Shown piece after piece: positions 1,178 to 59,986 of a DNA stretch of 64,000 bases. The translations under genes were made by a program, and so were the position numbers. The notes below the pieces were generated by a model, which searched no databases, had not been told where the DNA came from, and saw only the letters and a program-made list of their open reading frames with translations. Each line of letters begins with the position of its first letter. The stretch's first letter is position 1. Source of the stretch: an uncultured Gemmatimonadales bacterium (GTDB lineage: Bacteria; Gemmatimonadota; Gemmatimonadetes; Gemmatimonadales; Gemmatimonadaceae); contig CAWKMU010000003.1 of NCBI GenBank assembly GCA_963850905.1, positions 864,001 through 928,000 on the forward strand, written 5' to 3'.

Positions 1178-1305
1178 GGGGCTAGACGTTGGACGCTAGA
1201 CGTTAGACGTTAGAGACAAACCTCGGGGCCAGTGGCAGCGTAGCTGGCTGTCCCCGAGGTTTGTTCTCCAGCGTCCAGCACGTCCAGCGTCTAGCGTCCA
1301 GCCCC
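1178..1305. repeat. Palindromic intergenic element, GACGCTR-heptamer type
   Basis: Left arm (GYTRGAC)n, core ACAAACCTCGGGG...CCCCGAGGTTTGT, right arm (GTCYAGC)n. Confidence 0.9.
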
Positions 1306-1306
1306 C

Positions 1307-3055
1307 ATGCCATCAAAGAAAACCGTCCCCCTCCGTGGCAGCGCGAAGCAACCGCTCCCCAATGCTCGCGTCGTGGCGCCGGCGCCGGCCGACGAACGAC
1401 TCGAGGTGACTGTGCGACTGCGTCCTCGCACGCCACTCCCGGACGCGACATCGTTGCTGCAGCCGTCCACCGATCCAGCACCCATCCTGACTCGACAGGC
1501 CTACAACGCCCGCTACGGCGCGGATCCCAAGGACATTGCCCGCGTCCGTCGCTTTGCGAGTGCGCACCATTTGACCGTCGTGCGCGCGAGTGCGCCACGA
1601 CGCAGCGTGATGCTCTCTGGCACCGTCGCCGAGTTCAACAAGGCATTCCACGTCGATCTCCACACGTACGAGTATCCCGGCGGGACGTATCGAGGTCGCG
1701 TCGGCTCGATTCGGGTGCCGAGCGACCTCGCACCTGTCGTGGAAGGGATCTTCGGCTTGGACAATCGCCCCGTTGCGAGACGGCACTTCCGCATCGCGCG
1801 ATCGACAGCGCGACAGGCCAATGGCGCGCAGCCGTTCAATCCGCCGGACGTGGCGAAGTTGTACAACTACCCCGTGGGAGTCGACGGCACGGGGCAGACC
1901 GTGGGCATCATCGAGCTTGGCGGTGGCTATCGCGCGCAGGACCTGCAGGCGTACCTGGGAGGGCTCGGGTTGAGTTCTCCGACCGTGATACCGGTCTCCG
2001 TGGACGGCGCGACCAATTCGCCGAGCGGGGATCCGGGCAGTGACGACGGCGAGGTCGGTCTCGACATCGAGGTGATCGCCGCGGTAGCGCCCGGAGCGAA
2101 GATTGTGGTGTACTTCGCGCCCAACAGTCGCACATCGAAAGGATTCCTGGATGCCATCACGAAGGCTGTACACGATGACGCGAATGACCCGTCGGTGATC
2201 TCGATCAGCTGGGGAGGGCCGGAGGCAGGTCCCGGAGATGCCTTCCAAACGCAGTTCGATCAGGTGCTACAGTCCGCGGCGATGCTGGGCGTCACCGTGT
2301 GCATCGCGGCCGGGGACAACGGCGCCGCGGACATGGGTCCGAAAGCGTGGGACGGCCTTGCGCACGTCGACTTTCCGGCCGCGAGTCCGTTCGCGTTGGC
2401 GTGCGGCGGCACGCGCCTGGTCGCCACGGCGGGGGCGATTTCCGCGGAATCGGTCTGGAACCAGCACGCGGCGGACACGTCGGCCGACGCGGGACCCGAC
2501 GGCTCGTTCGGCGCGAGCGGGGGCGGAGTGAGCGGCGCATTTCCATTGCCTGCTTATCAAAATGCAGCGCAGGTGCCTCCGTCCCTCAATCCCCAGGGCT
2601 ACAAAGGGCGCGGCGTGCCCGACGTGACAGGCAACGGTGATCCCGCATCGGGCTACAACGTTCTCGTCGATGGAACGTCGTTCGTCGTCGGCGGTACGAG
2701 CGCGGTGGCACCGTTGTGGGCCGCGTTGGTCGCACGACTCAACCAGAAGCTTGGTGGACGCGTGGGGTTTCTCAACCCGCAGATCTACGCGGTCCCCATG
2801 GCGACAGGCGCATTGCACGACGTGACGGTCGGAGACAACCGTGTGAGCTACCAGACGCACAAGAACGTGGGATACAGCGCGGGCGCTGGTTGGGATGCCT
2901 GCAGTGGCCTCGGATCGCCCAATGGCGCCGTACTCGCGGCGCAGCTCACGGTGAGCAAGCCGGCGCGCGCAGCGTCGCCGAAGGCGGCTCGTCGCGCCCG
3001 GACCCCGGCCCGCGCGCGCAAACGCACACGCCCGAAGCGAGTGGTGCGCCGATGA
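1307..3055 (+). CDS. S53 family peptidase (kumamolisin/sedolisin-like) with pro-domain
   Basis: Pro-kumamolisin region; EVGLDIE, SISWGGPE, AAGDNG, GGTSAVAP and GWDACSGLGSP motifs. Confidence 0.93.
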   Translation: MPSKKTVPLRGSAKQPLPNARVVAPAPADERLEVTVRLRPRTPLPDATSLLQPSTDPAPILTRQAYNARYGADPKDIARVRRFASAHHLTVVRASAPRRSVMLSGTVAEFNKAFHVDLHTYEYPGGTYRGRVGSIRVPSDLAPVVEGIFGLDNRPVARRHFRIARSTARQANGAQPFNPPDVAKLYNYPVGVDGTGQTVGIIELGGGYRAQDLQAYLGGLGLSSPTVIPVSVDGATNSPSGDPGSDDGEVGLDIEVIAAVAPGAKIVVYFAPNSRTSKGFLDAITKAVHDDANDPSVISISWGGPEAGPGDAFQTQFDQVLQSAAMLGVTVCIAAGDNGAADMGPKAWDGLAHVDFPAASPFALACGGTRLVATAGAISAESVWNQHAADTSADAGPDGSFGASGGGVSGAFPLPAYQNAAQVPPSLNPQGYKGRGVPDVTGNGDPASGYNVLVDGTSFVVGGTSAVAPLWAALVARLNQKLGGRVGFLNPQIYAVPMATGALHDVTVGDNRVSYQTHKNVGYSAGAGWDACSGLGSPNGAVLAAQLTVSKPARAASPKAARRARTPARARKRTRPKRVVRR

Positions 3056-4233
3056 CTCGTTGGCTGTACCGCCTCACGACGATGACATTTGCCGCGGTCG
3101 CAGTCGCGGCGGCATCGACTGCGTGTTCTCACACATCGACCACCGAACCGGCCACGGGAGGAGGAGGATCCGGCTCGCACCCTCACTTGGTCGACACGTT
3201 CGCGTTCAACGTCGCCAGCGCCGACACGCCGTGGACGATCGGCATCGGAGACATCGCGACGTATCTGATCGGCGCGTCGCATGTCAGTGCGCGCGGCCGA
3301 CTGGCGGCCTATCCACCGTCGGGGGTTCGACCGCGCCTGTTGCTGGACACGATCACCGTGAATGATACGATCTCAGGCCCACCCTTTGGTACGAACTTGC
3401 AGAGGCCCAGCTCTCTGGCGTTCGATGGGAACGGCAACCTGTGGATGTCGGTCGGCGGCCGCCACGACTCTGGAAGCGTCATCGAGTACGTCCGCTCGCA
3501 AATCAACCAGAACGGCCGACAGACGCCAATGGTCACGCTGTCTGGCGCACACGCACCGCGGGGCCTCGCGTTCGATGCGAAGGGCTCTCTCCTGGTGGTC
3601 GACAGCTCGGCAGCCGCGTTGCTCGAGTACACGGGCATTGAGCTGACGACCAGCGGCCCCCCGGCTGATACCATCTCACTGAGCGGCATCACCGCTGCCG
3701 GCGCGACGTGGTCTCCCGTGGGCCTCGCAGTCGATCAACAGGGCAACGTGTGGGTGTCGGCTGTTCCGCGCACCCTTCCTGGTGGCCCCGCCGCCGACAG
3801 CGTGCCCGCGTACGTCGTCGCGAAGTTTACGACCATAGCGCTACAGGGTGGTGGCACGCCGGCGCCAGCACTGACGTTGGTTCAGACTGGGTCGAATCCC
3901 GCCGGATATGGGCCGGGTATGGCGTTCGATTCAGCAGGAGATCTCTGGACCGCGAACGCCGCTGCCACCAGCGTGACGGAGTTCACCGCGGCATCGCTCA
4001 CAGCCGGCGCAAACCCTGGTCCCTCGGTCACCATTACCGGGGCAACGCTGGCCGGCATAGCCGACATTGCCATCGATCCGGGCGACGTCCTCTACGTCGG
4101 CGGGAACGCGTTTGGCACTCCCGGCGAGGGGATGTTTGCGTATCGCCTCTCCCAGCTCACCGTCAGTGGCTCGCCAACTCCCGTGCTGAACTTCACGCCG
4201 CCGAATGGCTTGAATCATTTTGCGATAAGATAG
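3052..4233 (+). CDS. NHL/SMP-30-like beta-propeller lipoprotein
   Basis: ATG overlaps the upstream stop; lipobox-like STAC; repeated P.GLAFD..GNLW blades. Confidence 0.7.
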   Translation: MTRWLYRLTTMTFAAVAVAAASTACSHTSTTEPATGGGGSGSHPHLVDTFAFNVASADTPWTIGIGDIATYLIGASHVSARGRLAAYPPSGVRPRLLLDTITVNDTISGPPFGTNLQRPSSLAFDGNGNLWMSVGGRHDSGSVIEYVRSQINQNGRQTPMVTLSGAHAPRGLAFDAKGSLLVVDSSAAALLEYTGIELTTSGPPADTISLSGITAAGATWSPVGLAVDQQGNVWVSAVPRTLPGGPAADSVPAYVVAKFTTIALQGGGTPAPALTLVQTGSNPAGYGPGMAFDSAGDLWTANAAATSVTEFTAASLTAGANPGPSVTITGATLAGIADIAIDPGDVLYVGGNAFGTPGEGMFAYRLSQLTVSGSPTPVLNFTPPNGLNHFAIR

Positions 4234-4342
4234 ACGCTGGACGCTGGATGCTGGAAAGAAACCTCGGGGCCAGTAGCAGTGCACATCGCCGGCCCCGAGG
4301 TTTGTCTTCTAGCGTCCAGCGTCTAGCGTCTAGCGTCTAACG
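4231..4342. repeat. Palindromic intergenic element, GACGCTR type
   Basis: TAGACGCTGGACGCTGG..AAACCTCGGGGCCAG..GTGCAC..CCGGCCCCGAGGTTTGT..(TAGCGTC)n. Confidence 0.9.
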
Positions 4343-4378
4343 CACTAGGTTCACGTCTCCTCTATCCAGGACCCGTGG

Positions 4379-4870: not shown

Positions 4871-4873
4871 GCC

Positions 4874-6330: not shown

Positions 6331-6426
6331 CTGGGTTGTTGGGTCTGGGGACTCAGAGAATCTGGAGGGCTGATCACAGTACGCCGTGACCAGCCCTCGC
6401 AGTTTGTTCCGGACCCCTGACCCCTG
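6331..6426. repeat. Degenerate palindromic element, GGGGTCA/TGACCCC type
   Basis: GAGGGCTG...CAGCCCTC stem, GTTTGT, then CCCCTGACCCCTG. Confidence 0.6.
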
Positions 6427-11033: not shown

Positions 11034-11057
11034 GGGTGGCCTGAAGGCCGCCCCTAC
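11034..11057 (-). repeat. GTAG-type REP (class A) at the RAYT 3' end
   Basis: Minus strand reads GTAGGGGCGGCCTTCAGGCCACCC. Confidence 0.9.
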
Positions 11058-11545
11058 ATGTCGGCGCGCAGTCCATTGTCTGGCGCCAGCCAGCGACGGG
11101 GATTGTTTGCGATGTAGCGCCGACAAGCAGCTAATTCCGTGGCGTTTCGGATTACGCGATCATGGAAACCGCGCTGCCAGAATGGACCAGCCCGGCTCCA
11201 GGCGACGTTGATGCGTTTCGCAGCGAGACCCTTGAATGCGCCAACGACCTGCCCAAGGGTGATCGATTCACCAGCTGTCATCGACAAAATGACGTGAACG
11301 TGGTCCGGCATGATCACATAACGGTCTACCGCGATCGACCAGTGTCGCTCAACGACAATACCCAGCGCCTCGGCCGTGGCCTCACCTGCAGCCGTGAGAT
11401 GAATGGTGCCGCCTTTCACGACGCTCAGCACGTCTGCACGGGTCCGAACAACGGTGGTCACAAGGTACGATCCGTTGCGCGCGTATACCCGGCCCGGCAG
11501 TCGCAGACTGGGATTTCTCGGCCTTCGCAAGAACAATCGCGGCAT
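11054..11545 (-). CDS. REP-associated tyrosine transposase (RAYT, Y1_Tnp/HUH family)
   Basis: SLRLPG..Y...GSYLVT, YVIMPDHVH (HUH), FKG, WQRGFHDRVIR, YIANNP; flanked by GTAG REPs. Confidence 0.93.
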   Translation of the reverse strand: MPRLFLRRPRNPSLRLPGRVYARNGSYLVTTVVRTRADVLSVVKGGTIHLTAAGEATAEALGIVVERHWSIAVDRYVIMPDHVHVILSMTAGESITLGQVVGAFKGLAAKRINVAWSRAGPFWQRGFHDRVIRNATELAACRRYIANNPRRWLAPDNGLRADM

Positions 11546-11640
11546 GCCGCCAGATGGCGCTCCCGCGTCATCGCAACGTCAAACGTTGCGCTAAGGGATG
11601 AGGCTCAAGTCGACAAAGGCGCTCCGTTCCCGGAAACGGC

Positions 11641-12054
11641 ACGCCGACATGTAGGGGCGGCCTTTAGGCCGCCCACCATCCATGCGCCGACCGCCGAACT
11701 CCCTGGCCAACGGCGCCGACGTTTCCCCGACAGCCGTACGATTCGTTCTCGGTAATGGCCACGCCGACATGTAGGGGCGGCCTTTAGGCCGCCCACCCTC
11801 CACGCGCCGACCGCCGAACTCCCTGGCCAACGGCGCCGACGTTTCCCCGACAGCCGTACGACTCGTTCTCGGTAATGGCCACGCCGACATGTAGGGGCCG
11901 CCTTCAGGCCGCCCACCATCCACGCGCCGACCGCCGAACTCCCTGGCCAACGGCGCCGACGTTTCCCCGACAGCCGTACGACTCGTTCTCGGTAATGGCC
12001 ACGCCGACATGTAGGGGCGGCCTTCAGGCCGCCCACCATCCATGCGCCGACCGC
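11641..12054 (+). repeat. Tandem array of 120-bp units, each starting with a class A REP (about 3.5 units, 4 REPs)
   Basis: Units start at 11641, 11761, 11881 and 12001 with ACGCCGACATGTAGGGGCSGCCTTYAGGCCGCCC; linkers near-identical. Confidence 0.95.
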
Positions 12055-16317: not shown

Positions 16318-16450
16318 GGGATAGGGGGTTAGGGGTTAGAAGTAGGGACAACAAAACGCGTGGGTGGACGTTACGAGCCGTGAGGGCCGAGGACAACGTC
16401 CCTGCCTCTGTTCTTCTCCCAAAGCCCTGGTCCCTAACCGCTGGTCCCGG
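16318..16450. repeat. Degenerate heptamer-flanked element (GGGGTTA / CCCTAAC)
   Basis: GGGGTTAGGGGTTAG..ACAAA on the left, CCCTGGTCCCTAACC on the right; core not conserved. Confidence 0.4.
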
Positions 16451-16471
16451 CAGTTCGTACCTTCCGCCACC

Positions 16472-17959: not shown

Positions 17960-17988
17960 CGGACGTGCCTCGCGCGGGCGGTGACCGT

Positions 17989-18012
17989 GGGCGACGCATG
18001 CGTGGCCCCTAC
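17989..18012 (-). repeat. GTAG-type REP (class B)
   Basis: Minus strand reads GTAGGGGCCACGCATGCGTCGCCC, with the same upstream GGCGG as the 12886 copy. Confidence 0.85.
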
Positions 18013-18137
18013 CCGCCTGGGCCAGTGCGTCGTAGTCTCCTTTCTCCTTTCTGTACTTCTCCTTTCTTGAGCGCCTTAGCGCCCGCCCCCTGATCCCTGA
18101 TCCCGCCCCTTCAGGTTCAACCCCAATCCCTACCACC

Positions 18138-18923: not shown

Positions 18924-19082
18924 GGGTGACGGGTGACGGGTGACGGGTGACGGGTGACGGGTGACGGTGACGGGGAAAACGCGACGTGCACTGGCTTGTC
19001 AACCGAGCTCTACAATTACCTTCGCCTCACGATATGTTGTCGTTCCCGTCACCCGTCGCCCGTTTGCCTTTATCCGTCGCCC
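18924..19082. repeat. Heptamer-flanked element, GGGTGAC type
   Basis: (GGGTGAC)x6 plus 1 imperfect copy, GTGCAC nearby, inverted CCCGTCACCCGTCGCCCGT at about 19045. Confidence 0.8.
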
Positions 19083-19166: not shown

Positions 19167-21337
19167 ATGGCCGAGCGGTCCTTTACGAAGGAAGTCCAGA
19201 AGCTGTACCTCGGCGAGGGCGAGACCTTCCGCGGCGAGGGCATTCTCGCGGTCACCAAGGCGCTGCTCCAGTCCGGCGTGTCATACGTGGCCGGCTATCA
19301 GGGCGCGCCGATCTCGCACCTCATGGACGTCCTCACCGACGCCAACGACATCCTCGAGGAGTTGGGGGTGCATTTCGAGCACAGCGCCTCGGAGGCGACA
19401 GCGGCAGCCACACTCGCGGCGTCGGTCAACTATCCCCTGCGCGGCGCCGTCACCTTCAAGTCGACGGTGGGTACCAACGTCGCCTCTGATGCGCTTGCGA
19501 ACCTGGCGTCGGGTGGCGTCACCGGCGGGGCGCTCATCATCGTCGGCGAGGATTACGGCGACGGCTCGAGCATCATGCAGGAGCGCTCCCACGCGTTCGC
19601 GATGAAGTCGCAGATGTGGCTGCTCGATCCGCGGCCGAATCTGCCCTGATCGTGCGGGCGGTTGAAGAAGGATTCGCCCTGTCCGAGGCAACCAACACAC
19701 CGGTCATGCTCGAGCTCCGCATCCGGGCGTGCCATGTGCACGGCCAGTTCGCCGCCAAGAACAACGTCCGGCCCACCTTCACGCTCAAGGATGCCATCGA
19801 GCATCCAGTTCGCGATGTCACGCGCATCGTGTTGCCACCTGCGAGCTTTCTCCACGAGCAGGAGAAGATCCGCACGCGCTGGCCTGCGGCGCAGCAGTTC
19901 ATCCAGGATCATGCGCTCAACGAGTTCTTCGCGGCCGACGCCCGTGACTTCGGCATCATGTTGCAGGGCGGGATGTACAACGCGACCATCCGGTCGCTGG
20001 AGTTGCTCGGTCTCTCCGACGCGTTCGGCGACTCCAGGATCCCGCTGTACGTCCTGAACGTCACCTATCCGCTCGTCGAGGCTGAAGTCCAGCGGTTCTG
20101 CGCCGGTAAGCGCGGGGTGCTGGTGATCGAAGAGGGACAGCCCGACTTCATCGAGCAGAACTTGCACGCCATCCTGCGGAAGGCGGGGATGGACACGACG
20201 TTGCACGGCAAGGACATGCTGCCGATGGCGGGCGAGTACACCGGCGCCACGGTTACCAAGGGCGTCTTCGCGTTCGTGGACCGGTACGCGCCAAACCTGC
20301 TCGATCGCGCGAAGCTGCCATCCATCGTTCGCCCCGCCCCAGCCCCCACGCCTGCGCCGGGCGCCGCCACTCTGAACGTCGGGGCACAGGTGCATGCCCG
20401 CCCGCCGTCGTTCTGTACGGGGTGCCCTGAGCGACCGATTTTCGCTGCGATGAAGCTCGTGGAGCGCGAGATTGGCCAGCACCATGTCAGCTGCGACATC
20501 GGATGCCACCTGTTCTCGATTCTGCCGCCGTTCAACATCGGCGCGACGACAATGGGGTACGGACTGGGCTGGGCCGGGGCCGCCGCCCTCAACACCAAGA
20601 CGACCAATCGCCGCACGCTCGCCGTGATGGGCGACGGGGGGTTCTGGCACAATGGGCTCACGAGCGGCGTTGGCAATGCCGTCTTCAATCAGAGCGACAA
20701 TGTTTTGATCGTCGTCGACAACACCTACACCGCCGCCACCGGCGGGCAGGACATCCTGTCCTCGGCCGCCACGAATCCCATTCGCACGACACGGCTGTCG
20801 ATCGCCGATGCCGTGCGCGGCGTGGGAGTCAAGTGGGTCCGCACGATCACGAACACCTACGACGTCGCGAAGATGCGCGACACCCTGCGAGAGGCGCTCA
20901 CGACCAAGGAGCGCGGGCCGAAGGTGATCGTCGCGCAAAGCGAGTGCATGCTGAACAAGCAGCGCCGCGTCAAGCCACAGCTCGCGAAAGCAGCGCAAGA
21001 GGGCGTACGCGTCGTGCGCGAGCGATTCGGCGTCGACCCGGATACCTGCACCGGTGACCACTCGTGCATCCGGCTCTCCGGCTGTCCGTCGCTGACGGTC
21101 GCGCCCAACCCCGACCCGCTCCGCCAGGACCCGGTCGCGACGGTGATCGACAGCTGCGTCGGCTGTGGTCTGTGTGGAGAGGTCGCGCACGCCGCAGTCC
21201 TCTGCCCGTCGTTCTATCGCACCGACATCATTTCCAACCCGAGCCTCTGGGAACGCTTCGCGGGCCGTGTCAGACAGGCCGTGATTCGCATCCTGCAGCG
21301 TCGCATCGACCGCCGTTTGGCGGGGGTTTTCGGATGA
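19167..21337 (+). CDS. iorA: Indolepyruvate:ferredoxin oxidoreductase alpha-subunit family (frameshift at about 19647)
   Basis: AGYQGAP, HSASEA, RPPSFCTGCPER, DIGC, ThDP motif GDGG..HN, ferredoxin CVGCGLC; split across ORFs 19167..19649 and 19616..21337. Confidence 0.9.
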
Positions 21338-36285: not shown

Positions 36286-36350
36286 TGGCGGGAGAGGGGG
36301 AAGGTGTGCACCAGAAGTAGCACAGTGACCCCCCGGGCGCAAAGCGCCGG

Positions 36351-36422
36351 AGAGAGTAGAAGCACAGAAAGTAGACGAGGACCGCCCGGTCTACTTTCTA
36401 CTCTCTAGAGGTCTACTTTCTC
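36351..36422. repeat. Heptamer palindrome, AGAAAGT type
   Basis: AGAGAGTAGAAGCACAGAAAGTAGAC ... GTCTACTTTCTACTCTCT. Confidence 0.75.
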
Positions 36423-36448
36423 GGGCGCGTTAGCGCCCGCCGCGTGCG

Positions 36449-41174: not shown

Positions 41175-41316
41175 TGGACGTTAGACGCCAGACGCTGGAC
41201 GCTGGAGACAAACCTCGACGCCGGCTTGATGCACCGTGGCCGGCTTTGAGGTTTGTCTCTACCGTCCAGCGTCTACCGTCCAGCGTCTAGCGTCCAGCCG
41301 TCCAGCGTCCAGCCCC
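41175..41316. repeat. Palindromic intergenic element, GACGCTR type
   Basis: (GACGYYR)n ACAAACCTCGA.GCCGGC..ATGCAC..GCCGGC.TTGAGGTTTGT (CGTCYAS)n. Confidence 0.9.
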
Positions 41317-44817: not shown

Positions 44818-44884
44818 GCAAACCTGCGGGGCCAGAGATCAGGGGTCGGGGGTCGGGAACGACGACGACCTTCCAACAACGACC

Positions 44885-45022
44885 GGGCGGGCTGAAGCCC
44901 GCCCCTACATGTTGCTGCGGACGCCCGCGACAACAATTCGTCGACGCGCGAAGGGAAACATTGGTCGAGCACTCCCGAATCCGACTATGCACCGACATGT
45001 AGGGGCGGCCTTCAGGCCGCCC
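44885..45022. repeat. Inverted class A REP doublet (REPIN-like)
   Basis: GGGCGGGCTGAAGCCCGCCCCTAC (44885-44908) and GTAGGGGCGGCCTTCAGGCCGCCC (44999-45022). Confidence 0.9.
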
Positions 45023-45079
45023 ACCGTCGGACCCGGTCGTGCGCCGTTGTCGTTCTCTGGCCCCAGGCCTCTGTAGTTG

Positions 45080-45682
45080 ATGCCGCACCTCGTTCTCCTC
45101 GGCGACTCCGTCTTCGACAACGCGAGCTACGTGGTTGCCGGACGTGCCGCCATCCACGCGTTCGAGGCGCATGCTCCGCCAGGCTGGCGCGTCTCGCTGC
45201 TGGCACAGGATGGCAGTACGATCGACGAGATCGGTCGACAGCTGATGCATCTCCCGAGCGATACGACCCACCTTGCGCTGTCCGCCGGTGGCAATGACGC
45301 GCTCCGGGATGCTGGGATCCTCACGGAGCGGGCCGGGACGGTCGCGGAAGCGCTCTGGAAGGTGGCGCACGTCGCCTCGCGATTCGAGCGCCGGTACGTC
45401 GACATGCTGCGCAAAGTCCGCGCGCGCAAGATGCACGCTGTGGTGTGTACGATCTACAACGGCAACTTCGGCGACACACACTTGCAGCAAATCGCTTCGA
45501 CCGCGCTGTGCGTGTTCAATGACGCCATCATTCGCGCCGCCGGGGCCGCGTCCATGCCCATCGTGGAGTTGCGAACGGTCTGCGACGAGCCGGAAGACTA
45601 CGCGAACGAGATCGAGCCGTCCGGCCGTGGGGGAGAGAAGATTGCCAGGGCAGTGCTACAGGCGCTAGACGCTGGACGCTAG
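45080..45682 (+). CDS. SGNH/GDSL hydrolase
   Basis: LLGDSVFDN, SAGGND, DYAN.IEPS. Confidence 0.88.
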   Translation: MPHLVLLGDSVFDNASYVVAGRAAIHAFEAHAPPGWRVSLLAQDGSTIDEIGRQLMHLPSDTTHLALSAGGNDALRDAGILTERAGTVAEALWKVAHVASRFERRYVDMLRKVRARKMHAVVCTIYNGNFGDTHLQQIASTALCVFNDAIIRAAGAASMPIVELRTVCDEPEDYANEIEPSGRGGEKIARAVLQALDAGR

Positions 45683-45773
45683 ACGCTGGAGAAGAAACCT
45701 CGGGGGCGACCTAGATGCGCTGCGGCTGGCCCATGAGGTTTGTTTTTATAGCGTCCAGCGTCTAACGTCCAAC
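45664..45773. repeat. Palindromic intergenic element, GACGCTR type, between convergent genes
   Basis: (GCTRGAC)n AAACCTCGGGGG...CTGGCCCATGAGGTTTGT (GCGTCYA)n. Confidence 0.88.
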
Positions 45774-46520
45774 ATCCCTCCCCACTCTCGCCGTCACCGC
45801 CCACCGCAGCTCGTGACGGGTCCCGCGATCTCCCCACAGGGGCGCCAGGCTCTCCAGGAACGGCGACACGGGATCGGCGCCGTGGCGCTTGAGATACGCG
45901 GCGCACGATGACCAGGAGCGGAGGTATTGCGCGAGCTCATCGAGCGTCCATAGGCGGACGATATCGATCGGCGGAGCCGGCGTCTCCACAAAGGGAAACG
46001 GGAGCTGCCGCATCGCGGCGCCCACGAGTCCGCGGCCGGCGGGCCAGTACGGGCCGAGCGTGACCAGATTGAAGTGCTGGAGTGCGGCATCGACTGCCCT
46101 GTCATCCGGTATCACCGGGTCGCCATAGCTCCAGACTGCGAGCACACCACGGGGCACGAGCACCCGCTTCGCTTCTGCGTAGAAGCGTTCGCGGTCGAAC
46201 CAGTGCAGCGCCTGCGCGACCGTGACCAGATCGACTGTTGCGCCCGGGAGACCACTGGCTTCGGCCGTCGCCACTCGGTACTCGATTCGCGGATGCGCGC
46301 GCGCATGCGCGAGTTGCTCCGCGCTCGCGTCGGTTGCGATGACCCGCTCGAAGAAGGCCGCCAGCGCCAGCGCCGCTTGCCCGTTGCCGGTAGCGCAGTC
46401 CCATGCGAGCCTGCGTCGCTCAACGATCGACGCGAGGAAGTCGAACAGGGCGGGCGGATAGTCGGGACGGATGGCCGCGTACGTCGCGGCCTGCGCGGAG
46501 AAAAGATCCTGAAACCCCAT
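45762..46520 (-). CDS. Class I SAM-dependent methyltransferase
   Basis: RPDYP, AWDCATGNGQ, VAQALHWF. Confidence 0.92.
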   Translation of the reverse strand: MGFQDLFSAQAATYAAIRPDYPPALFDFLASIVERRRLAWDCATGNGQAALALAAFFERVIATDASAEQLAHARAHPRIEYRVATAEASGLPGATVDLVTVAQALHWFDRERFYAEAKRVLVPRGVLAVWSYGDPVIPDDRAVDAALQHFNLVTLGPYWPAGRGLVGAAMRQLPFPFVETPAPPIDIVRLWTLDELAQYLRSWSSCAAYLKRHGADPVSPFLESLAPLWGDRGTRHELRWAVTARVGRDVGR

Positions 46521-46876: not shown

Positions 46877-46915
46877 GGTTTGGCCCTCCTACGGCGAGGC
46901 TAGGAAAGGTAACGA

Positions 46916-47070
46916 GGACCAGGGCTCAGGGATCAGGGACCAGACATCAGGGGTCAGGGGTCAGGGGTGAGGGGTCAGGGACCTACAACAAACACCGAGG
47001 GCCAGCCGCTTTACACCGCGACCGGCCCTGAGTGTTTGTTCCGGACCCCTGATCCCCGATCCCTGATCCC
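46916..47070. repeat. Palindromic intergenic element, GGGGTCA type
   Basis: (CAGGGGT)n ACAAACACCGAGGGCCAG...CCGGCCCTGAGTGTTTGT (CCCTGAT)n. Confidence 0.9.
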
Positions 47071-47079: not shown

Positions 47080-47676
47080 TTACTTGTGCTTATCCCGATA
47101 GATCGCGTGGCTCGTCTTGTTCTGCTCGTGGTTGATCTGGCCCTTCTCCACGCCGGTCAACTTGCCACCGTTAGCGGACCGATCCGCATGGATCTGCTGG
47201 TTGATGTGCTGCTCATGTCCTTCGAGATGGGCGGCTTGGCCAGCTGACAGCTTCCCGCTGCGAATGCCGTTCGCGATTCGGTTCTGCTGATTCAGGCGAC
47301 GTTGCCCAACCTCGTTGTTGCCATAGTGCGCGGTCGCTGCATTGTGCTTATCCGTGTAGATCTCTTTGCTCAAATGGTTCTGCTCGCCATTGAGTTGCGA
47401 GCGGTCGGCCGCCGTGAGGTGGCCATCATCCGCGGCTCGGTCGGCGCGTGCCTGCGAGTTGACCGTGGCCTCCTGGCCCTCGAGGGACTTCGTCTCGCCG
47501 GCCGTCAACTGTCCGCTCTGGACGCCGTTCGCGATGCGATCCTGTTGGTTCTGCTCGCGGTCCTGGTAGGTCCCCGGAGGCGGGGCCTGCGGATCCTGGG
47601 CTGCGCCGCTCGATGGCAGAAAGACGAGACCGACGGTGGCGGCGATCGAGGCCGCGTAGAAGGCTTTCCCAAGCAT
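47080..47676 (-). CDS. Secreted helical-repeat hypothetical protein
   Basis: Signal peptide; repeats of NQQ.RIANG..SG.L.AG....LE. Confidence 0.8.
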   Translation of the reverse strand: MLGKAFYAASIAATVGLVFLPSSGAAQDPQAPPPGTYQDREQNQQDRIANGVQSGQLTAGETKSLEGQEATVNSQARADRAADDGHLTAADRSQLNGEQNHLSKEIYTDKHNAATAHYGNNEVGQRRLNQQNRIANGIRSGKLSAGQAAHLEGHEQHINQQIHADRSANGGKLTGVEKGQINHEQNKTSHAIYRDKHK

Positions 47677-47780: not shown

Positions 47781-47840
47781 GAGAAACACTGAGGGGCCAG
47801 TGTCGGATCACCGCCGCTGGCCCTCAGTGAGGTTGGTTCC
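47781..47840. repeat. Core-only copy of the palindromic element (no heptamer arms)
   Basis: AAACACTGAGGGGCCAG...CTGGCCCTCAGTGAGGTT. Confidence 0.7.
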
Positions 47841-47861
47841 CGAGTCGTAAATCCCCCGCTC

Positions 47862-51085: not shown

Positions 51086-51193
51086 GGGGTCAGGAATCAG
51101 GGGTCAGGGGTCAGTGAACAAACCGAGAGACCGGTCACGGTGCACCGGAACTGGCCCTCTATGTTTGTTCCCCGGCCCCTGGCCCCTGACCCC
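51086..51193. repeat. Palindromic intergenic element, GGGGTCA type
   Basis: (GGGGTCA)n ACAAAC..GTGCAC..CTGGCCCTC..GTTTGT (CCCCTGR)n. Confidence 0.88.
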
Positions 51194-53270: not shown

Positions 53271-53279
53271 GGGGTAGGC

Positions 53280-53513
53280 GTTGGACGGTAGACGTTGACG
53301 TTAGACGCTGGACGTTAGACGCTGGACGCTGGACGAGCAAATTCCGAGGGCCACTTGCGGTGCACCGAGTCTCGTGCTCGAGTTTTTCGCCAGCGTCCAG
53401 CGTCCAGCGTCCAGCGTCCAGCGTCCAGCGTCCAGCGTCCAGCGTCCAGCGTCCAGCGTCCAGCGTCCAGCGTCCAGCGTCCAGCGTCCAGCGTCCAGCG
53501 TCTAACGTCTAGC
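53280..53513. repeat. Palindromic intergenic element, GACGCTR type, with expanded right arm
   Basis: About 8 left 7-mers, degenerate core with GTGCAC, then (CAGCGTC)x16 at 53391-53502. Confidence 0.95.
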
Positions 53514-55298
53514 CTCTCGGCTCGCTGCCCGCGCCGCGGCCGTGTCCCCGATCGCCGTCAGCATGGTCACATAGCTGCGCCGTAGTAACCGGTCACGCGG
53601 GTGATCACTCAGCGCCAACCGATAGGCCGCGTCGGCGTCGTGGACGTCGTCGACGCGCTGCGCCGCCTGGGTCAATACCATGATCGCCTCGACGGAGTCG
53701 CGGTCGAGCAGGTAGGCCCGGCGCGCCAGCGCTATCGTCCCGCGATAGTCGCCCGCGGCGTACTGCAGCCAGGCGTGCCGCATGAGATCCGGGTATGCAC
53801 CCGGCTCGATCAATCGCGCGCTGTCCAGCAGGCGCTCCGCTGCACGAGCGCCGGAGTCGCCCCGCCTCACCAGCATCCACGCCGCCGCTTGATACAGGTA
53901 CGGGTCTTGGTTGTACAGCGCTCGGGCGATCTGGTACTCGCGCAGCGCGGTCGTCGTGTCGCCCTCGCGCTCGAACACGTCGGCGACGCGCTCGTGCGCC
54001 CGATACGACTCGGGCTCGTCGTGCAGCGACGCGACAATCGCCGTCTTGTTATCTCGCCAGATCGGCGTTCGTGTCCAGCTGCGGGCGGCGCATGCCGCGA
54101 TGAGGGCGGCCGCCAGGGCCGGCCAGGCCGCGCGCGCCCGCGTCATCGGTCGGCGCTCCCACAGCCACCCCACGGCAATGGCGACGGCCAGACTGGGCAG
54201 GTACAACGTACGCTCGGCGACCACGATGCCCGACGGGAAAAACACGTTCGCGACCGGAGCCACCGCGATCACGAACGCCGCGACTGCGAAAGCGATGGCC
54301 GGCGCAGTGCGCCGCGCCCGTACGGCGAGCACAGTCGATGCAGCGATGATCACAAGACCCAGCAAGACCCGAACGGTCAATCCGTGCGCGATCGTGATCA
54401 CCTGTGGCATGTAGTCGACGTGCAGGCGAGCCGGGACCACCATCAGACGGAGATACTCGGTGGCGTCGCCGATTGCGGTCAACCAGCGCGCCCCCAGTGA
54501 GCTGTGCGTCCAGGGCGCGGCGATCCGCACCATCGGCCTGCCGCTGAAGACGAGTAGAAGGATCGCTCCGTACAGCGCCGTGACGGTAGCGTACGCGGCG
54601 TACAGTGCTCGTCGTGGGAGCGGTCGCGCGGTGGACGCTGTCATGTCGGCCGCGTGGGTCGCCGGGTCGACGCCGCCCCACCCCAGCACCAGATCGGCGG
54701 CGGCGGCGAGCCCCAAGAACGTGATCCCCGTTTCCTTGGACGCGAGGGCAGCGGCGTACAGCAGGATCGCCACCCAGCGACCGCGGCGGTGCGCGAGCAG
54801 CGCCGCGAGCACGAAGGCCGTGCACATCAACTCGCTCCGGCCCACCAGATTGGCGACCGCTTCGACGTGCACGGGGTGGACCGCGAACACCAGTGCGCCG
54901 ACGATCGCAGCGCCGGGCGCGAGCATTGTCGCCAACAGCCGCCAGATGAGCAGGCACACGAGGACGTGCCAGCCAACATTGACAGCATGCAGCCATACGG
55001 GGGAACCGTGCGAGAGCGACCAATCGACCGCAAACGACGCGATCGTGAGCGGGCGGTATTGCCCGGCCTTGGTGGCCTCTGGCCAGTAGCTGTGTGCGAA
55101 CGATCGCACAACGCCTGACAGCGAGTGGACGAGAGGATTGCGGGCGATCACATCATTGTCGTCCAGCGCGAATCCGTTCCCAAGTGCATTCGCGTAGCCC
55201 AGTGCCGCGGTCGCGGCGACGATGCTGGCCGCGACCGATCGTCTGGTTCGCCAATGTGCTTCCGATCCGTCAGGGGCCTGCTCGAGGATCGCCCGCAT
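53502..55298 (-). CDS. TMTC-like GT-C membrane glycosyltransferase with C-terminal TPR-like repeats
   Basis: GFALDD, YRPL, HPVHVEAVA..GR, SKE, AERTLYLP. Confidence 0.82.
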   Translation of the reverse strand: MRAILEQAPDGSEAHWRTRRSVAASIVAATAALGYANALGNGFALDDNDVIARNPLVHSLSGVVRSFAHSYWPEATKAGQYRPLTIASFAVDWSLSHGSPVWLHAVNVGWHVLVCLLIWRLLATMLAPGAAIVGALVFAVHPVHVEAVANLVGRSELMCTAFVLAALLAHRRGRWVAILLYAAALASKETGITFLGLAAAADLVLGWGGVDPATHAADMTASTARPLPRRALYAAYATVTALYGAILLLVFSGRPMVRIAAPWTHSSLGARWLTAIGDATEYLRLMVVPARLHVDYMPQVITIAHGLTVRVLLGLVIIAASTVLAVRARRTAPAIAFAVAAFVIAVAPVANVFFPSGIVVAERTLYLPSLAVAIAVGWLWERRPMTRARAAWPALAAALIAACAARSWTRTPIWRDNKTAIVASLHDEPESYRAHERVADVFEREGDTTTALREYQIARALYNQDPYLYQAAAWMLVRRGDSGARAAERLLDSARLIEPGAYPDLMRHAWLQYAAGDYRGTIALARRAYLLDRDSVEAIMVLTQAAQRVDDVHDADAAYRLALSDHPRDRLLRRSYVTMLTAIGDTAAARAASREARR

Positions 55299-55303
55299 GC
55301 CGC

Positions 55304-56690: not shown

Positions 56691-57503
56691 ATGCAGTGTT
56701 TGGCGCCGTTCGAGCCCCGCGAAGCCGGCCCCCGTGGGGCTGCCGCGACGAGGCTTTCCTGGTTTGTCATCGCCGTCGCGGTCAGCGTCGGGCTCGGACT
56801 CCTTCTCATCATGAATTGGCGAGAGGTCATCGCCACGCTCCATTGCCACACCGTCCTCCAAGCCGAGCTCGCGATCTGCGCGGGGACGCTCGCTGGATTG
56901 CTTCTCAGCCGGATGGAAGTCAACCCGATCACGCAACGGCGCATCGCCGCGCTTGACCAACTCTATGAGCGCGCGGCCTCGGCTCCTGCACGCGTAGAGC
57001 CTGGCTACACCCACTATCTGCCCTGCGTCGTCCTGTTGACCAATGATCCGTCGGCGAACGTCGTGGCGGAAGTCCGCGCGCGGTCGGAGGGAACCCTGTT
57101 GAAGACTGCCGCCGGTGCGGTCCTCTACTTCGGGCCCAAGGGCGTGCTGCTGTCGAGTCCCCATGACCACCCCGATCCGAGCGGGATCGCCGGCGTCGTC
57201 GAGTCGATTCCTGCCTCGACGCGGTCGCGCCAGCGGACCTGGCTCCGGGCTCGGCCGGTGCCACCCCGTCTTGCGACCACCGATTTGGGGACCGTGCGGG
57301 AGGTGACCGCGGTGTCCGTCGCGCTGCCGCAAGGCCAACTCGCGCGGGTCGCCCGCATGCAGCCCAAGAATGCCATGCTGCTGCGATGGCCCCGGGGTCA
57401 GGCACTCATTGCCGTCCCGTCCATCGGCGACACCCTGCCACGACTGCACCGCTGCTTGGATGAGCTGCGGTGGGCCGCGGACGCTGCGCGTCCGAGAAAG
57501 TAG
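56691..57503 (+). CDS. Hypothetical membrane protein
   Basis: Long ORF with two N-terminal hydrophobic helices. Confidence 0.5.
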   Translation: MQCLAPFEPREAGPRGAAATRLSWFVIAVAVSVGLGLLLIMNWREVIATLHCHTVLQAELAICAGTLAGLLLSRMEVNPITQRRIAALDQLYERAASAPARVEPGYTHYLPCVVLLTNDPSANVVAEVRARSEGTLLKTAAGAVLYFGPKGVLLSSPHDHPDPSGIAGVVESIPASTRSRQRTWLRARPVPPRLATTDLGTVREVTAVSVALPQGQLARVARMQPKNAMLLRWPRGQALIAVPSIGDTLPRLHRCLDELRWAADAARPRK

Positions 57504-57590
57504 AACCACAGAAAGTAGAAAGTGGACAAACTGCGCTTCGAGACTCGAGGTCCGCCGCTGGTGTTCACCTTCTACTCTCTGTAGGTCTCG
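57495..57590. repeat. Heptamer element, AGAAAGT type
   Basis: AGAAAGTAGAACCACAGAAAGTAGAAAGTGGACAAAC ... CTTCTACTCTCT; left arm shared with 36351. Confidence 0.7.
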
Positions 57591-57694
57591 TCCCTCCAGC
57601 GCGAAGCGCCGGCCACGTTGCGGTTCCCTTGCCGACACCGTCCTCAGAGTCGAACGCGATTCGCAGGTCCACTTTTCCGCCCATTGGAGGCCCA

Positions 57695-58051
57695 GTGGCC
57701 GACCCTGTATCGAAGCCCGCCAACCCGGCCGGCGCGACCGCTGGCAAATCTGCGCCCTCGTCGCCCACCCCCGCGCCAACTGGCGGAGCGGCCCCAAAAT
57801 CGGTACCCGCGCCCACCGCGGCACCCAAGCCAATCGCCTCGATCGATGACTTGATCGAGCGCGCCGAGGACCGGCTCATCCCGAAGGGATCGACAGTTCG
57901 CGTGTCGCCCGACAACCCGGATGTCGCCTCAAAGGCCCGCCAGGAAGAGCTCGAAGACAGTCTCCAAGCGTGCGGTATCAAGGTCATCTGGGATAAATCG
58001 CTCGGGACGACGGAGATAGTGGTGGAGGCAGCAAAGGGCGGGAAGAAGTAG
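57695..58051 (+). CDS. Small hypothetical protein, Pro/Ala-rich N-terminus
   Basis: GGAGG RBS before the GTG; globular-looking C-terminus. Confidence 0.55.
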   Translation: MADPVSKPANPAGATAGKSAPSSPTPAPTGGAAPKSVPAPTAAPKPIASIDDLIERAEDRLIPKGSTVRVSPDNPDVASKARQEELEDSLQACGIKVIWDKSLGTTEIVVEAAKGGKK

Positions 58052-58059
58052 GTAGGAGA

Positions 58060-58167
58060 TAGACGCTAGACGCTCGACGCTGGACGCTAGAAAAAACCTC
58101 GAGGGCCAGCCCAATGCACTGCGGCTGGCCCTCGAGGTTTGTTCCAGCGTCTAACGTCTAACGTCTA
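58060..58167. repeat. Palindromic intergenic element, GACGCTR type (best-preserved core)
   Basis: Perfect 18-bp IR AAACCTCGAGGGCCAGCC (58094-58111) / GGCTGGCCCTCGAGGTTT (58123-58140); loop CAATGCACTGC. Confidence 0.95.
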
Positions 58168-58671
58168 TTTCCTGTCATACACCGCGATGAAATGCACTGG
58201 AATGCCGCCGCCCATGCTCAACTGCAGGTTGACGTCGCGGACGTACGACCTCTTGTCCGGCGTGAGATACTCGCGGCTCGCCTGCGTCGCCACCTTCTGA
58301 CCTGCGACGGTGATCTCTCCGGTGCTGGTGGTCGTATCCCCATGCATCGTGAAGACCGCGTGGATGGAGCTTGCCGGTTGTCCGTTTTGCGGCGCCACGC
58401 TGTTCGTGACTTCGCCGTCGCCGACCGGGAACTCGAACGTCATATGTGAAGGGCCTTCGGGCGAGATCGTGTTTTCATCCACATGATACATCCCGCCAGA
58501 CCGCGTGATGATTAGTGAGTCCATCGTCGGCGCAGGCGAATTCCCGAAGGAGCTTTTCGAGAGGTTGAGCACCCACCGGCCTGAGAGGTCGCTCGGCTGG
58601 GCCGCGATCTCGCCAATCGGGAGGAGGAGCAGAACGAGGATGCGAAGTACCGTCATTCGGCCCATGGTCAC
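58165..58671 (-). CDS. Secreted lipocalin-like hypothetical protein
   Basis: Signal peptide; DLSGRWVLNLSKSSFG, REYL.PD; paralog of the next gene. Confidence 0.75.
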   Translation of the reverse strand: MTMGRMTVLRILVLLLLPIGEIAAQPSDLSGRWVLNLSKSSFGNSPAPTMDSLIITRSGGMYHVDENTISPEGPSHMTFEFPVGDGEVTNSVAPQNGQPASSIHAVFTMHGDTTTSTGEITVAGQKVATQASREYLTPDKRSYVRDVNLQLSMGGGIPVHFIAVYDRK

Positions 58672-59204
58672 TGCCGCCTGAAAACCGCCACCACGTGCTG
58701 CAAATCTTCGTCCGGGTTCACCAGACTTTGCAGGTCATATTCACGAGTGCGGACCTTCCCGTCGGGCGAGAGATACTCGCGGCCGGACTCGATCTCGATG
58801 GCCTTTCCGGCGTGTTTGAGCTGCGAAACGAACATCGCCGTGTCACCGTGTAGCGTGACACGCGTTTGCATGCTGGCCTCCAAATCGGGAAGATCGGCCG
58901 TGGCCTCTCCCGAGCCCACCGGCCACGAGTAGGTGATGTGCGAAGCCCCCGTGTCCGTCGCATTGACTTCCACGATCTGATAAACACTTCCGACTCGTGT
59001 GTAGGTCGAGGTGTCCGAGGTCGGCGTTGGCAACAGCCCGAAGTCGCTCTTCTGCTTGTCAAGCACCCAGGTGCCGGCCAAATCCGGCACGCTCGCGCGT
59101 TGATCGGGGTTCGGACCCGAAGGGCGATTGGCCAATTGCGCGCCCGCAACCCACGCCACCGAGGGCAGTGCGCACAGACTAGCGACAACGACGAGGCGGC
59201 GCAC
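58668..59204 (-). CDS. Secreted lipocalin-like hypothetical protein
   Basis: Signal peptide; DLAGTWVLDKQKSDFG, REYLSPD. Confidence 0.75.
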   Translation of the reverse strand: MRRLVVVASLCALPSVAWVAGAQLANRPSGPNPDQRASVPDLAGTWVLDKQKSDFGLLPTPTSDTSTYTRVGSVYQIVEVNATDTGASHITYSWPVGSGEATADLPDLEASMQTRVTLHGDTAMFVSQLKHAGKAIEIESGREYLSPDGKVRTREYDLQSLVNPDEDLQHVVAVFRRQ

Positions 59205-59205
59205 G

Positions 59206-59841
59206 CTAGCTCCTCGCACCGGCAGTGGCCTTCGTCGCCTCGGACTCGAGCGCGACGACCACTTCGCCCAGCTCATCCATGATCGCCGCATCGAAGCCGA
59301 CCGCCTGCAACCGATTCAACACGCGCCGATACCAGCCGGCCATCACGTCAGGGCCACGGGCAAACCGTCCCCAAACGGTCTCCGGAAACGCGGTCCGGTT
59401 GAGATCAGCGAGGATCGCGCTCGCGTTGTGCAACTTGTCGGCTGCACAAATCCAGTGGGCTGACTCGCTGGCCTCTCCCAATCGGTCGAGATAGTCGTCC
59501 TTGCGCTCCTCCCACGAAAGGTCGACGCCGTCGTCGTCGACCTTTCGCTCCGTCACCGACAGCACAGCTGAGAGCACGTCGTTCCCGAACTTCGAGCCGA
59601 TTCGCTCCATCAAGTCCTCCCGTGTATAGCCATCGCGGACGCTGTCCTCGACGACATCATGGAGGATCCCTCCAAGCACCGTGGCCTCGCTGCAGCCGTA
59701 GCGCGTGAGGATGACCGCGACGTTCGCCGGATGGGTGAGGTACGGGAGCGCTGTGCCCTTGCGCACCTGGCGGTCGTGGTGCTTCGCCGCAAACGCGAAC
59801 GCATGATTCACCCGATCCGAATACCCCACGATTCGCGGCAT
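59206..59841 (-). CDS. Stand-alone RelA/SpoT-type HD domain protein (small alarmone hydrolase-like)
   Basis: AF.FA..HH..QVRKG...PYLTHP, ILHDVVED, ADKLHN. Confidence 0.9.
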   Translation of the reverse strand: MPRIVGYSDRVNHAFAFAAKHHDRQVRKGTALPYLTHPANVAVILTRYGCSEATVLGGILHDVVEDSVRDGYTREDLMERIGSKFGNDVLSAVLSVTERKVDDDGVDLSWEERKDDYLDRLGEASESAHWICAADKLHNASAILADLNRTAFPETVWGRFARGPDVMAGWYRRVLNRLQAVGFDAAIMDELGEVVVALESEATKATAGARS

Positions 59842-59881
59842 GGAAGGAAGGATGAGGGGACGGAGGGTTCGGGGGCAACTA

Positions 59882-59986
59882 GGGGCTGGACGCTGGACAG
59901 AAACTCAAGGCCAGCCACGGTGCATCTAGCTGGCCCCTCGAGGTTTGTCTCTAGCGTCTAGCGTCTAGCGTCCAGCGTCCAGGCCC
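59882..59986. repeat. Palindromic intergenic element, GACGCTR type
   Basis: GCTGGACGCTGGAC AGAAACTCAAGGCCAGC..GTGCAT..GCTGGCCCCTCGAGGTTTGT (CTAGCGT)n. Confidence 0.9.

Follow-up and report, generated by a model that had tools for sequence, protein, structure and literature searches.

Foldback hairpins with heptamer arms occupy gene-end slots of changing content in an uncultured Gemmatimonadales bacterium

Intergenic repeats with a period of seven nucleotides are widespread and unexplained, and the genus studied here provides a case that can be counted. The REP, REPIN and RAYT systems comprise ~100-nt extragenic hairpins, numbering hundreds per genome, that are commonest between convergent and tandem genes and are restricted to particular lineages (PMC3733652, PMC8266576, PMC3686654, bioRxiv 10.1101/2021.07.10.451892, 10.1101/2024.10.14.618302), and overwriting of REPINs in place has been reported (bioRxiv 10.1101/2024.10.14.618302). 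The elements analysed here resemble them in these respects, to the extent that the cited accounts describe them. Like REPINs they are multi-copy, extragenic, placed at the 3′ ends of genes and apparently overwritten at orthologous sites, and GTAG REPs and RAYT genes share their arms. Unlike REPs, their core lacks a GTAG or CGTC foot, does not flank a RAYT gene and shows no strand bias; no two inner cores are identical, and the conserved termini are tandem heptamer arrays rather than REP stems.

The intergenic heptamers of Xanthomonas (GGGAATC) and Nostoc share the period of seven, the placement of the G-rich strand near stop codons and a frequent arrangement as inverted pairs, of which there are 70 in Xcc and 75 in Xac (PMC4692102). 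In that account, so far as it is drawn on here, each species has one word, the arrays are read as G-quadruplexes and the loci are stable. By contrast, several families coexist in the present genome, the loop holds a conserved core and the slots turn over; a GGG tract is found only in the GGG family, and neither the GACG nor the AGAAAG words can form quadruplexes. The S23p (PF05635) intervening sequence (IVS) of Coxiella 23S rRNA has heptamer-bearing inverted ends around a four-helix-bundle gene (PMC4990558), an arrangement that recurs in an orthologous slot of one relative; the present elements differ from the IVS as described there in lying at the ends of mRNA genes, in being gene-less throughout the window and in the lack of homology between their core and the cassette flanks. 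The TAACTGA repeats of Beggiatoaceae (PMC4679880) and the heptanucleotide elements of Geobacter (PMC2700814) are likewise dispersed intergenic heptamer arrays beside gene boundaries, of unexplained function. They are mostly direct repeats, those of Beggiatoaceae being upstream of start codons, and a unit of inverted arms plus core does not figure in the cited parts of those papers.

The window is the whole stretch of 64,000 nucleotides that was analysed, from a genome (G000) that is 82% complete; the relative G004 is 92% identical, and G001 is more distant than G004. The original prediction was of a conserved hairpin core at 11 intergenic sites, wrapped in inverted heptamer arms. Alignment and an HMM confirmed all 11 cores (the HMM matches begin at the core starts in Table 1), and the arm assignments were correct, with the GACGCTR type at seven sites, the GGG type at three (that at 6331 degenerate) and unrecognisable arms at 47781, where the G004 orthologue retains short GGGATY-like units. 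An iterated core HMM (E ≤ 0.1) found 176 non-overlapping copies genome-wide and none in the reversed genome. Inverted heptamer arms surround 108 of the 176, whereas matching arms flanked 3 of 2000 random positions. Tandem arrays with a period of seven number 387 genome-wide, while any other period between 4 and 12 gives 1-38. The written core consensus fits the GACG subtype, but the GGG subtype has its own; hairpins said to span 100-230 bp measure 85-240 nt (median 113); and the sites put forward as related (16318, 18924, 36351 and 57495) do have arms but give no core HMM match.

Table 1. Positions of the elements and associated features in the window, with the state of the same slot in relatives.
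Feature	Position	Strand	Remarks	Relatives
GACG-armed element, core 1216-1262	1178..1306		fills gap from stop codon (1177) to next ATG (1307)	GACG-type elements in G004 and G001; plain 37-nt gap in G002
GACG-armed element, core 4259-4305	4233..4337		core HMM	G004: GGGTGAC arm and GTAG REP; G001: GACGTTC element
Degenerate GGG-armed element, core 6359-6407	6340..6424		more arm-like units out to ~6570	absent from G004
RAYT-like HUH tyrosine transposase gene, 163 aa	11054..11545	-	PF01797 36.9 bits (cut-off 23); NF047646 76.4 bits, slightly below cut-off 80	
GTAG-type REP2 copies around RAYT gene	11034..12040		one below gene, four above in 120-nt units	
GGGGTTA-armed hairpin, core-less	16318..16460			kept in G004 and G001; AGAAAG type in G002
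Layered remnant	17985..18110		REP1-like hairpin, AGAAAG arm, mini-hairpin, GGG arm, stop-like cap	
GGGTGAC-armed hairpin, core-less	18924..19070		from sequence	
AGAAAGT-armed hairpin flanked by two mini-hairpins, core-less	36330..36445		from sequence	G004: one mini-hairpin only; G001: GGG arms with REP
GACG-armed element, core 41208-41254	41177..41312		right end adjoins stop codon	
GGG arms enclosing inverted REP2 doublet, REPIN-like	44828..45075		overlooked in original prediction	G004: GACG and core; G001: AGAAAG type; G002: CTAG-type arms and core; G003: nothing
GACG-armed element, core 45695-45743	45661..45776		convergent genes on both sides	G004: arm carries IS; G001: arms-only collapse; G002: CTAG-type arms and core
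GGG-armed element, core 46988-47036	46915..47070			near-identical in G004 (vertical); replaced in G001
Core 47788-47834, arms decayed	47781..47845		core HMM	
GGG-armed element, core 51120-51168	51086..51193			G001: collapse to caps and one mini-hairpin
GACG-armed element, core 53340-53386	53277..53516		right arm grown to 18 units	
AGAAAGT-armed hairpin, core-less	57495..57600			kept in G004 and G001
GACG-armed element, core 58095-58142	58062..58165		between convergent genes	arms GACGTTR in G004, GACGTTC in G001
GACG-armed element, core 59901-59948	59882..59985			G001: single arm remnant; G002: absent

The element at 58056-58172 has a folding energy of -78.1 kcal/mol (z -12.7). Changes on both sides of the core stem number 22 against 10.9 in shuffles, a count whose weight is limited by the relatedness of the sequences, and RNAalifold predicted no consensus pairs from a MAFFT alignment. 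A search of the window against Rfam at gathering score gave no match to a described ncRNA family. The core is limited to one genus, where it forms one cloud across three species (mean identity 0.64-0.68 both within and between them), and every inner core is distinct (38/38, 59/59 and 26/26). The two arms of an element are similar in composition. Shuffling unit order within arms altered nothing (P 0.26-0.87), so we reject the idea that template switching made one arm by mirroring the other unit by unit.

The idea of interchangeable arms on one core holds in part, within a family, where the arms shift and the core is kept: at GACG/GACG slots in common with G001 the word has changed from GACGCTR to mostly GACGTTC with orientation kept 10:1. 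Cross-family swaps, however, bring a new core. For 89 of 105 cores the closest other core belongs to an element of the same arm family, against a shuffle mean of 52; core subtypes follow arm family, and where the arm family of a slot differs the cores are at least 0.85 identical in 0/14 cases in G004 and 2/14 in G001.

Placement relative to genes is precise. The outer end of the arm lies within 15 nt of the stop codon on 68 of 75 GACG and 55 of 77 GGG gene-end sides; for tandem gaps the figure is 40/50 against 13.2 expected. Convergent gaps hold 76 of the 176 cores and divergent gaps 10, compared with 271 and 503 respectively of all 2001 gaps. RNA-level evidence for the elements is weak. The sense strand is the more stable in 27 of 50 elements (Wilcoxon P 0.046), GU exceeds AC by 105:70 in columns that are not independent, and core polarity showed no link with transcription or replication.

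Turnover was counted on partial stretches of three relatives using our own gene calls and arm classes; on that basis, 88 of the 801 gaps common to G000 and G004 have the same arm family, 35 a different family and 102 an element in one genome only. By arm call, 169 of these conserved gaps (about one fifth) carry such an element in G000. The element is non-coding, as predicted, and is no fixed feature of its slot: an orthologous gap may be filled, collapsed or empty, or another family may have taken it. A different family had re-occupied the tandem slot in 20 cases, where 4.3 were expected (P 4e-11), while slot reuse in convergent gaps was not significant (13 vs 9.1, P 0.09). Whole families displace each other at the same stop codons, and the word shifts genome-wide between species 8% apart: GACGCTR makes up 61% in G000, GACGTTR 91% in G004 and GACGTTC 58% in G001. 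Core identity at GACG/GACG slots (0.68, from HMM columns with 79 of 80 pairs kept) equals that of paralogues (0.69), with 2/18 at 0.85 or above, against a median of 0.89 for plain gaps. Some slots are nevertheless plainly vertical between genomes. MITEs are non-coding and multi-copy with inverted ends; the present elements differ in having no cognate IS, and neither fixed termini nor a target duplication was noticed by eye when 48 pairs of filled and short alleles were compared. Most of the short alleles resemble collapses rather than pristine targets, and 15 of 25 retain an arm or mini-hairpin remnant against 21 of 170 controls.

The elements are best read as behaving like REPINs without being REPs. 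We give an even chance to the view that they are foldback hairpins at gene-end slots whose contents are overwritten by recombination between genomic copies. Relatives often have a different hairpin, a small gene or near-nothing in the same gap, so that overwriting in place is likely, and the uniqueness of all inner cores is what mosaic copying would give. Comparison of present-day genomes makes recombinational copying the likely route. A hairpin would now and then be broken or bypassed and repaired by copying another element of the genome, probably in the manner of gene conversion. Arm length may be set by slippage and elements lost by deletion across the hairpin, while RAYT would move only the REP-bearing subset; a stable RNA hairpin at the transcript end might be retained because it does no harm or because it helps, through protection of the 3′ end, processing by RNase III or weak termination. 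Chimaeras of left and right halves are found, with the joint at the right stem of the core, and the right half bearing REP1 occurs with GGG, AGAAAG and GACG left arms. Neither adenine-directed mutagenesis of the DGR kind nor a C-to-T bias was seen in 27 composites. Counting against overwriting, neither a copying event nor an intermediate was seen among the genomes compared, cross-family swaps offer little outer homology on which recombination could resolve, and a GACG arm is paired with a GGG arm at just 1 of the 176 cores. No burst of near-identical copies was found, so the donors cannot be named. What lies inside the arms is variable: they may enclose the core, but also GTAG REPs, a gene for RAYT or one for a four-helix-bundle protein. 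One slot thus joins three puzzles (heptamer arrays, REP/RAYT and four-helix-bundle cassettes), which makes the copying route testable.

The presence of RAYT raises the question of whether all the elements are REPIN-like passengers of the resident HUH enzyme, single-stranded hairpins cut and pasted at gene ends, with those lacking a REP being decayed or cross-mobilised. In G000 there are two RAYT genes, each accompanied by cognate GTAG REPs; one is that of the window and the other lies at C3 ~704.4-705.0 kb. The former and its REPs had been missed in the original prediction. Arms lie near 73 of 247 REP1 and 37 of 102 REP2 copies compared with 330 of 2001 gaps, a RAYT gene of G002 lies inside GGG-like arms, the REPINs in the work cited above are overwritten at conserved sites, and among 42 composites of core and REP1 all 39 in negative-skew regions are on one strand. 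Yet no GTAG REP accompanies the GACG elements, which make up most of those in the window, and cores without REPs, those of the GACG elements included, show no strand bias. The core HMM has no match in DNA adjoining the RAYT genes (the sole match, ~1.2 kb upstream, is a separate element), these genes being flanked by REP1 or REP2 and never by the core. In GACG-rich G004 there are only five composite-type copies of linker plus REP1 in 1.2 Mb. We regard this explanation as improbable, if the strongest of the alternatives. Note that GTAG and CGTC are absent from the core consensus and present only in REP1/REP2 cargo, as had been claimed, but the claim of unrelatedness to classical REPs has to be qualified, since GTAG REPs too are found inside these arms. 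It is rather unlikely that the elements are gene-less, non-autonomous copies of an arm-enclosed PF05635 cassette, spread by that protein or a partner and comparable to rRNA intervening sequences. In G001, GACGTT arms that have the same cap enclose an intact PF05635 gene, and the GACGCT arms at that slot in G000 enclose 74 gene-less bases; 14 of the relatives' 29 best PF05635 loci are within inverted heptamer arrays, against 0-2 for periods 5, 6, 8 and 9; and heptamers are described at the RNase III site of the Coxiella IVS (PMC4990558). On the other hand, the core HMM gave nothing significant at 53 PF05635 loci (best E 1.1), so derivation of the core from the flanks of the four-helix-bundle gene is rejected. 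None of the four PF05635 matches of G000 is enclosed by arms; they follow an AGAAAG hairpin, and three of them are partial. Whereas the core occurs in a single genus, PF05635 is present in 32 of 41 genomes. No convincing gene-bearing GACG or GGG cassette was found in G000 and the stretches of relatives scanned, and neither a reverse transcriptase nor GxxExxY families were found in G000, at its 82% completeness. We know of no catalytic activity in the PF05635 family. Protein genes inside such arms do exist, PF05635 in G001 and, within GGG-like arms, RAYT in G002, but no enzyme is tied to the core, and no protein gene flanked by it was found that would make it a recognition site.

An undescribed self-overwriting system, in which a small four-helix-bundle protein reads the heptamer word and directs error-prone replacement of the gene-end hairpin, so that hundreds of loci are rewritten when the word preferred by the protein changes, with REPs, RAYT genes and IS elements carried as cargo, seems distinctly unlikely. 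Very doubtful, finally, is that the elements are resident, fast-mutating terminator or mRNA-end hairpins, with arms selected for a host binding protein that has a species-specific word. Their strict gene-end position, the A-rich and T-rich flanks of the core, the stem covariation, the single cloud of cores over three species and the vertical slots would all be expected of it. Intrinsic terminators are gene-end hairpins whose 3′ flank is T-rich; a terminator scan flagged 2 of 8 cores and found 11 sites in the region against 9.4 ± 3.2 in shuffles. At least five T follow the arms at 10 of 216 ends, and for 9 of 39 start-facing GACG ends the next start codon is no more than 15 nt away. Nor would such hairpins account for whole families displacing one another or for emptied slots. 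Core orientation is kept 11:6 in the closer G004 against 10:1 in the more distant G001, which uniform mutation leaves unexplained and which is better fitted by overwriting in one lineage than by uniform hypermutation.

Two minor observations concern single hairpins. The left arm of the G001 PF05635 cassette is adjoined by 12 bases that hint at a likeness to the core, and the loop of the hairpin at 18924..19070 contains, by eye, a sigma70-like -35/-10 pair.

The eleven window sites that had been proposed to share one core do share it; all align and all are recovered by the core HMM. The window is positions 864001-928000 of contig C3 in genome G000 (4.49 Mb, 82% complete). Iterated over this whole genome, the model finds 176 cores at E≤0.1, while the reversed sequence, used as a control, yields none. 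Arms are present on both sides of 108 cores, 57 of the GACG type (GACGCTR-like units) and 51 of the GGG type (GGGGTCA-like), with a median length of 113 nt. A third arm family, AGAAAG, encloses loops other than the core. The genome contains 387 period-7 tandem arrays, compared with 1-38 for each of periods 4-6 and 8-12, and 159 inverted array pairs at most 1.5 kb apart, of which 107 have a spacing of 50-99 nt. A strict core pattern matched 29 stretches in the GTDB collection (a scan that may not include G000 itself), all from two uncultured Gemmatimonadales assemblies. A looser pattern applied to 121 genomes of the family gave overlapping matches, 18 in G000, 24 in its relative G004 and 1-2 in four others, with no match in 115. 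Over the genomes covered by these two scans, the core is thus confined to a portion of a single genus.

The elements are located at gene ends, as defined by home-made gene calls. Of the 176 cores, 76 fall between convergent genes, 87 between tandem genes and 10 between divergent ones; two lie within genes and one borders a contig end. Among the gaps of at least 100 nt taken as background, 271 are convergent, 1227 tandem and 503 divergent. On 68 of 75 GACG and 55 of 77 GGG gene-end sides, no more than 15 nt separate a stop codon from the outer end of the arm. For 35 GACG sides the stop, as called, falls within the arm itself, near offsets -1, -8 and -15. At GACG ends in G000, a TAG-containing 7-base unit puts a stop codon into each of the three frames over a stretch of 21 nt. 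In tandem gaps the element is closer to the stop than to the start in 43 of 50, and 40 of 50 are within 15 nt of the stop, against 13.2 expected. Translation is affected by REPs that lie no more than 15 nt from a stop. Signs at the RNA level are weak, and the elements may have some function there. In the core stem 84.1% of cells are paired, with both-side changes numbering 22 against 10.9 in shuffles (41 sequences, mutually related); RNAalifold gave no consensus structure from the alignment of those 41 sequences, and no Rfam family matched anywhere in the window.

Slots (i.e. the gene-end gaps that hold the elements) change their occupants between related genomes. Sequence was fetched from G004 (1.2 of 5.3 Mb), G001 (0.8 of 4.4 Mb), G002 (0.36 of 4.0 Mb) and G003 (34 kb), matching 801, 503, 128 and 2 of the 3359 gaps of G000; flank identity to G000 is 92, 84 and 77% for the first three. 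The 801 gaps shared with G004 have the same arm family in 88 and a different one in 35, arms only in G000 in 46 and only in G004 in 56 (classes inflated by decayed arms), and neither in 576. Clear short alleles occur in both directions. Comparison of empty and filled orthologous loci, suggested in the original prediction, thus reveals slots that are filled, emptied or held by another family. In the G000/G004 comparison, reuse of a tandem slot by a different family is seen 20 times, where 4.3 cases are expected (P 4e-11); for convergent slots the corresponding 13 against 9.1 is not significant. Eight slots in a three-way comparison have GGG in G000 but GACG in both others, and the slot at window position 44828 carries a different element in each of four genomes and is empty in G003. 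Remnants of an arm or mini-hairpin persist in 15 of 25 short alleles for G004 and 9 of 13 for G001, whereas the controls show them in 21 of 170 and 19 of 100, respectively; many short alleles are therefore collapses. Collapse of AGAAAG elements leaves one mini-hairpin, sometimes nested within GGG arms, a sign that the occupants of a slot may be layered one upon another. We also note an IS200-like element inside a CTAG-type arm in G002 (L211).

Core subtype tracks arm family, the nearest core being of the same family in 89 of 105 (in shuffles, 52 on average and 72 at most). The inner cores are all unique, with no identical pair, and core identity is 0.64-0.68, alike within and between species. 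The inner stem of GACG cores is uneven, its left and right sides being 0.49-0.50 identical, no more than random halves are; this polarity shows no link with either replication or transcription. Symmetry is greater in GGG cores (0.68 vs 0.57). The two arms of one element share composition, not unit order. Plain gaps of G000 and G004 have a median identity of 0.89 (n=171), 74% being at least 0.85. Core identity in GACG/GACG slots of this pair is 0.68 (paralogues 0.69), reaching 0.85 in 2 of 18; that level is reached in 4 of 10 GGG/GGG slots and in none of 14 different-family slots. With the more distant G001, GACG/GACG cores are 0.76 identical (paralogues 0.67), 4 of 11 reaching 0.85. Core orientation is kept:changed 10:1 for G000/G001, 11:6 for G004/G000 and 8:11 for G004/G001. 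It is kept less by G004 than by the farther G001, and we therefore read overwriting as having happened mainly in the lineage of G004. Each species has its own arm word, GACGCTG/A in 61% of 765 units in G000, GACGTTG/A in 91% of 687 in G004 and GACGTTC in 58% of 369 in G001, and the difference holds at orthologous slots. Taken together, core identity, orientation and arm word bear out interchangeable arms around one core only within a family, where arms can be rewritten round a kept core; a swap between families brings a new core.

The elements are real, and are REPIN-like in position and turnover, yet are not REPs by the defining features. Published papers describe inverted GGGAATC pairs close to stop codons (PMC4692102), REP classes (PMC3733652, PMC3686654), RAYT cleavage (PMC8266576), heptamers at an IVS RNase III site (PMC4990558), intergenic heptamer repeats in Beggiatoaceae (TAACTGA, PMC4679880) and Geobacter (PMC2700814), and mixed REPINs in 13 of 20 conserved spaces (bioRxiv 10.1101/2024.10.14.618302, 10.1101/2021.07.10.451892). 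Within the literature covered (main texts, few of them from subscription journals) we found neither a conserved core within exchangeable 7-mer arms nor slot turnover of heptamer arrays.

Features of the window and of contig C3 (window positions unless the contig is named)
Feature	Position	Observation
Element filling the gap between a stop codon and the following ATG	1178-1306	no ribosome-binding site visible; orthologous gap in G002 is an ordinary 37-nt gap
RAYT-like gene	11054-11545	GTAG REP2 copies on flanks
Tandem 120-nt units upstream of RAYT gene	11640-12054	three and a half units, one REP2 each; partial RAYT at same locus in G002 (L216)
REP1 copy	12886	
AGAAAG elements	18060-18085, 36330-36445, 57480-57600	flanked by tiny GC hairpins, loops 3-4 bases
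GGGTGAC element loop	18980-19010	near-consensus sigma70 -35/-10 pair, by eye, upstream of ORF at 19167
Element	45661-45776	G004 orthologue (L073): ~1.2-kb insertion with transposase-like ORF, presumably IS5-like, inside left GACGTTR arm
ORF	47080-47676	internal repeats at a 258-nt spacing, with 73-75% identity (47084-47551); no NCBIfam match
Second RAYT	C3, about 704.4-705.0 kb	flanked by REP1

The evidence best fits a population of hairpin slots at gene ends, where recombination between element copies, probably by a repair route, would overwrite the hairpin and deletion across it would remove the element. Static terminators that mutate fast would share the gene-end position, but set beside the replacements and collapses this is the least likely of the alternatives. 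The elements also carry cargo. The two GTAG-type REP families lie near arms (REP1 73/247, REP2 37/102) more often than do gaps in general (330/2001), a REP1 half is also found attached to AGAAAG and GACG left arms, and in the 42 core+REP1 composites 39 of 39 within negative-skew regions are on one strand; REP-less cores have no strand bias. A RAYT (HUH tyrosine transposase) may thus act on the REP-bearing copies, and it is unlikely that it drives all of them. The strand bias of REP1 itself (+:-) is 125:6 at 0-1 Mb of C3 (negative GC skew), 7:15 at 1-2 Mb, 55:11 at 2-3.65 Mb and 28:0 on C4, and much smaller for REP2; REP1 copies are densest round their RAYT.

A cassette driven by the four-helix-bundle protein (PF05635, known from rRNA intervening sequences, IVS) is less likely again. 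The gene is present in 32 of 41 genomes, and inverted 7-mer arrays enclose 14 of the 29 best loci. G001 has an intact gene between GACGTT arms where the same slot in G000 has GACGCT arms around 74 gene-less bases; that slot has a different arm family in G002 and nothing in G003. None of 53 PF05635 loci contains a significant match to the core. The anticipated protein gene carrying the same arms is therefore found in G001, while all four PF05635 matches in G000 lie outside arms. Apart from the slot population favored here, a recurring unit comprises a tRNA 3′ fragment (att-like), a mini-hairpin, a hairpin with AGAAAG arms and a frequently truncated gene for a four-helix-bundle protein. It is found at apparent island borders in G000, G002 and G004 (L001-L004 at 12-48 kb of C3 in G000, L030-L032, L185-L187), the fragment being from tRNA-Ile in three G000 copies. 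G006 and G009 have just the AGAAAG hairpin and four-helix-bundle gene of this unit.
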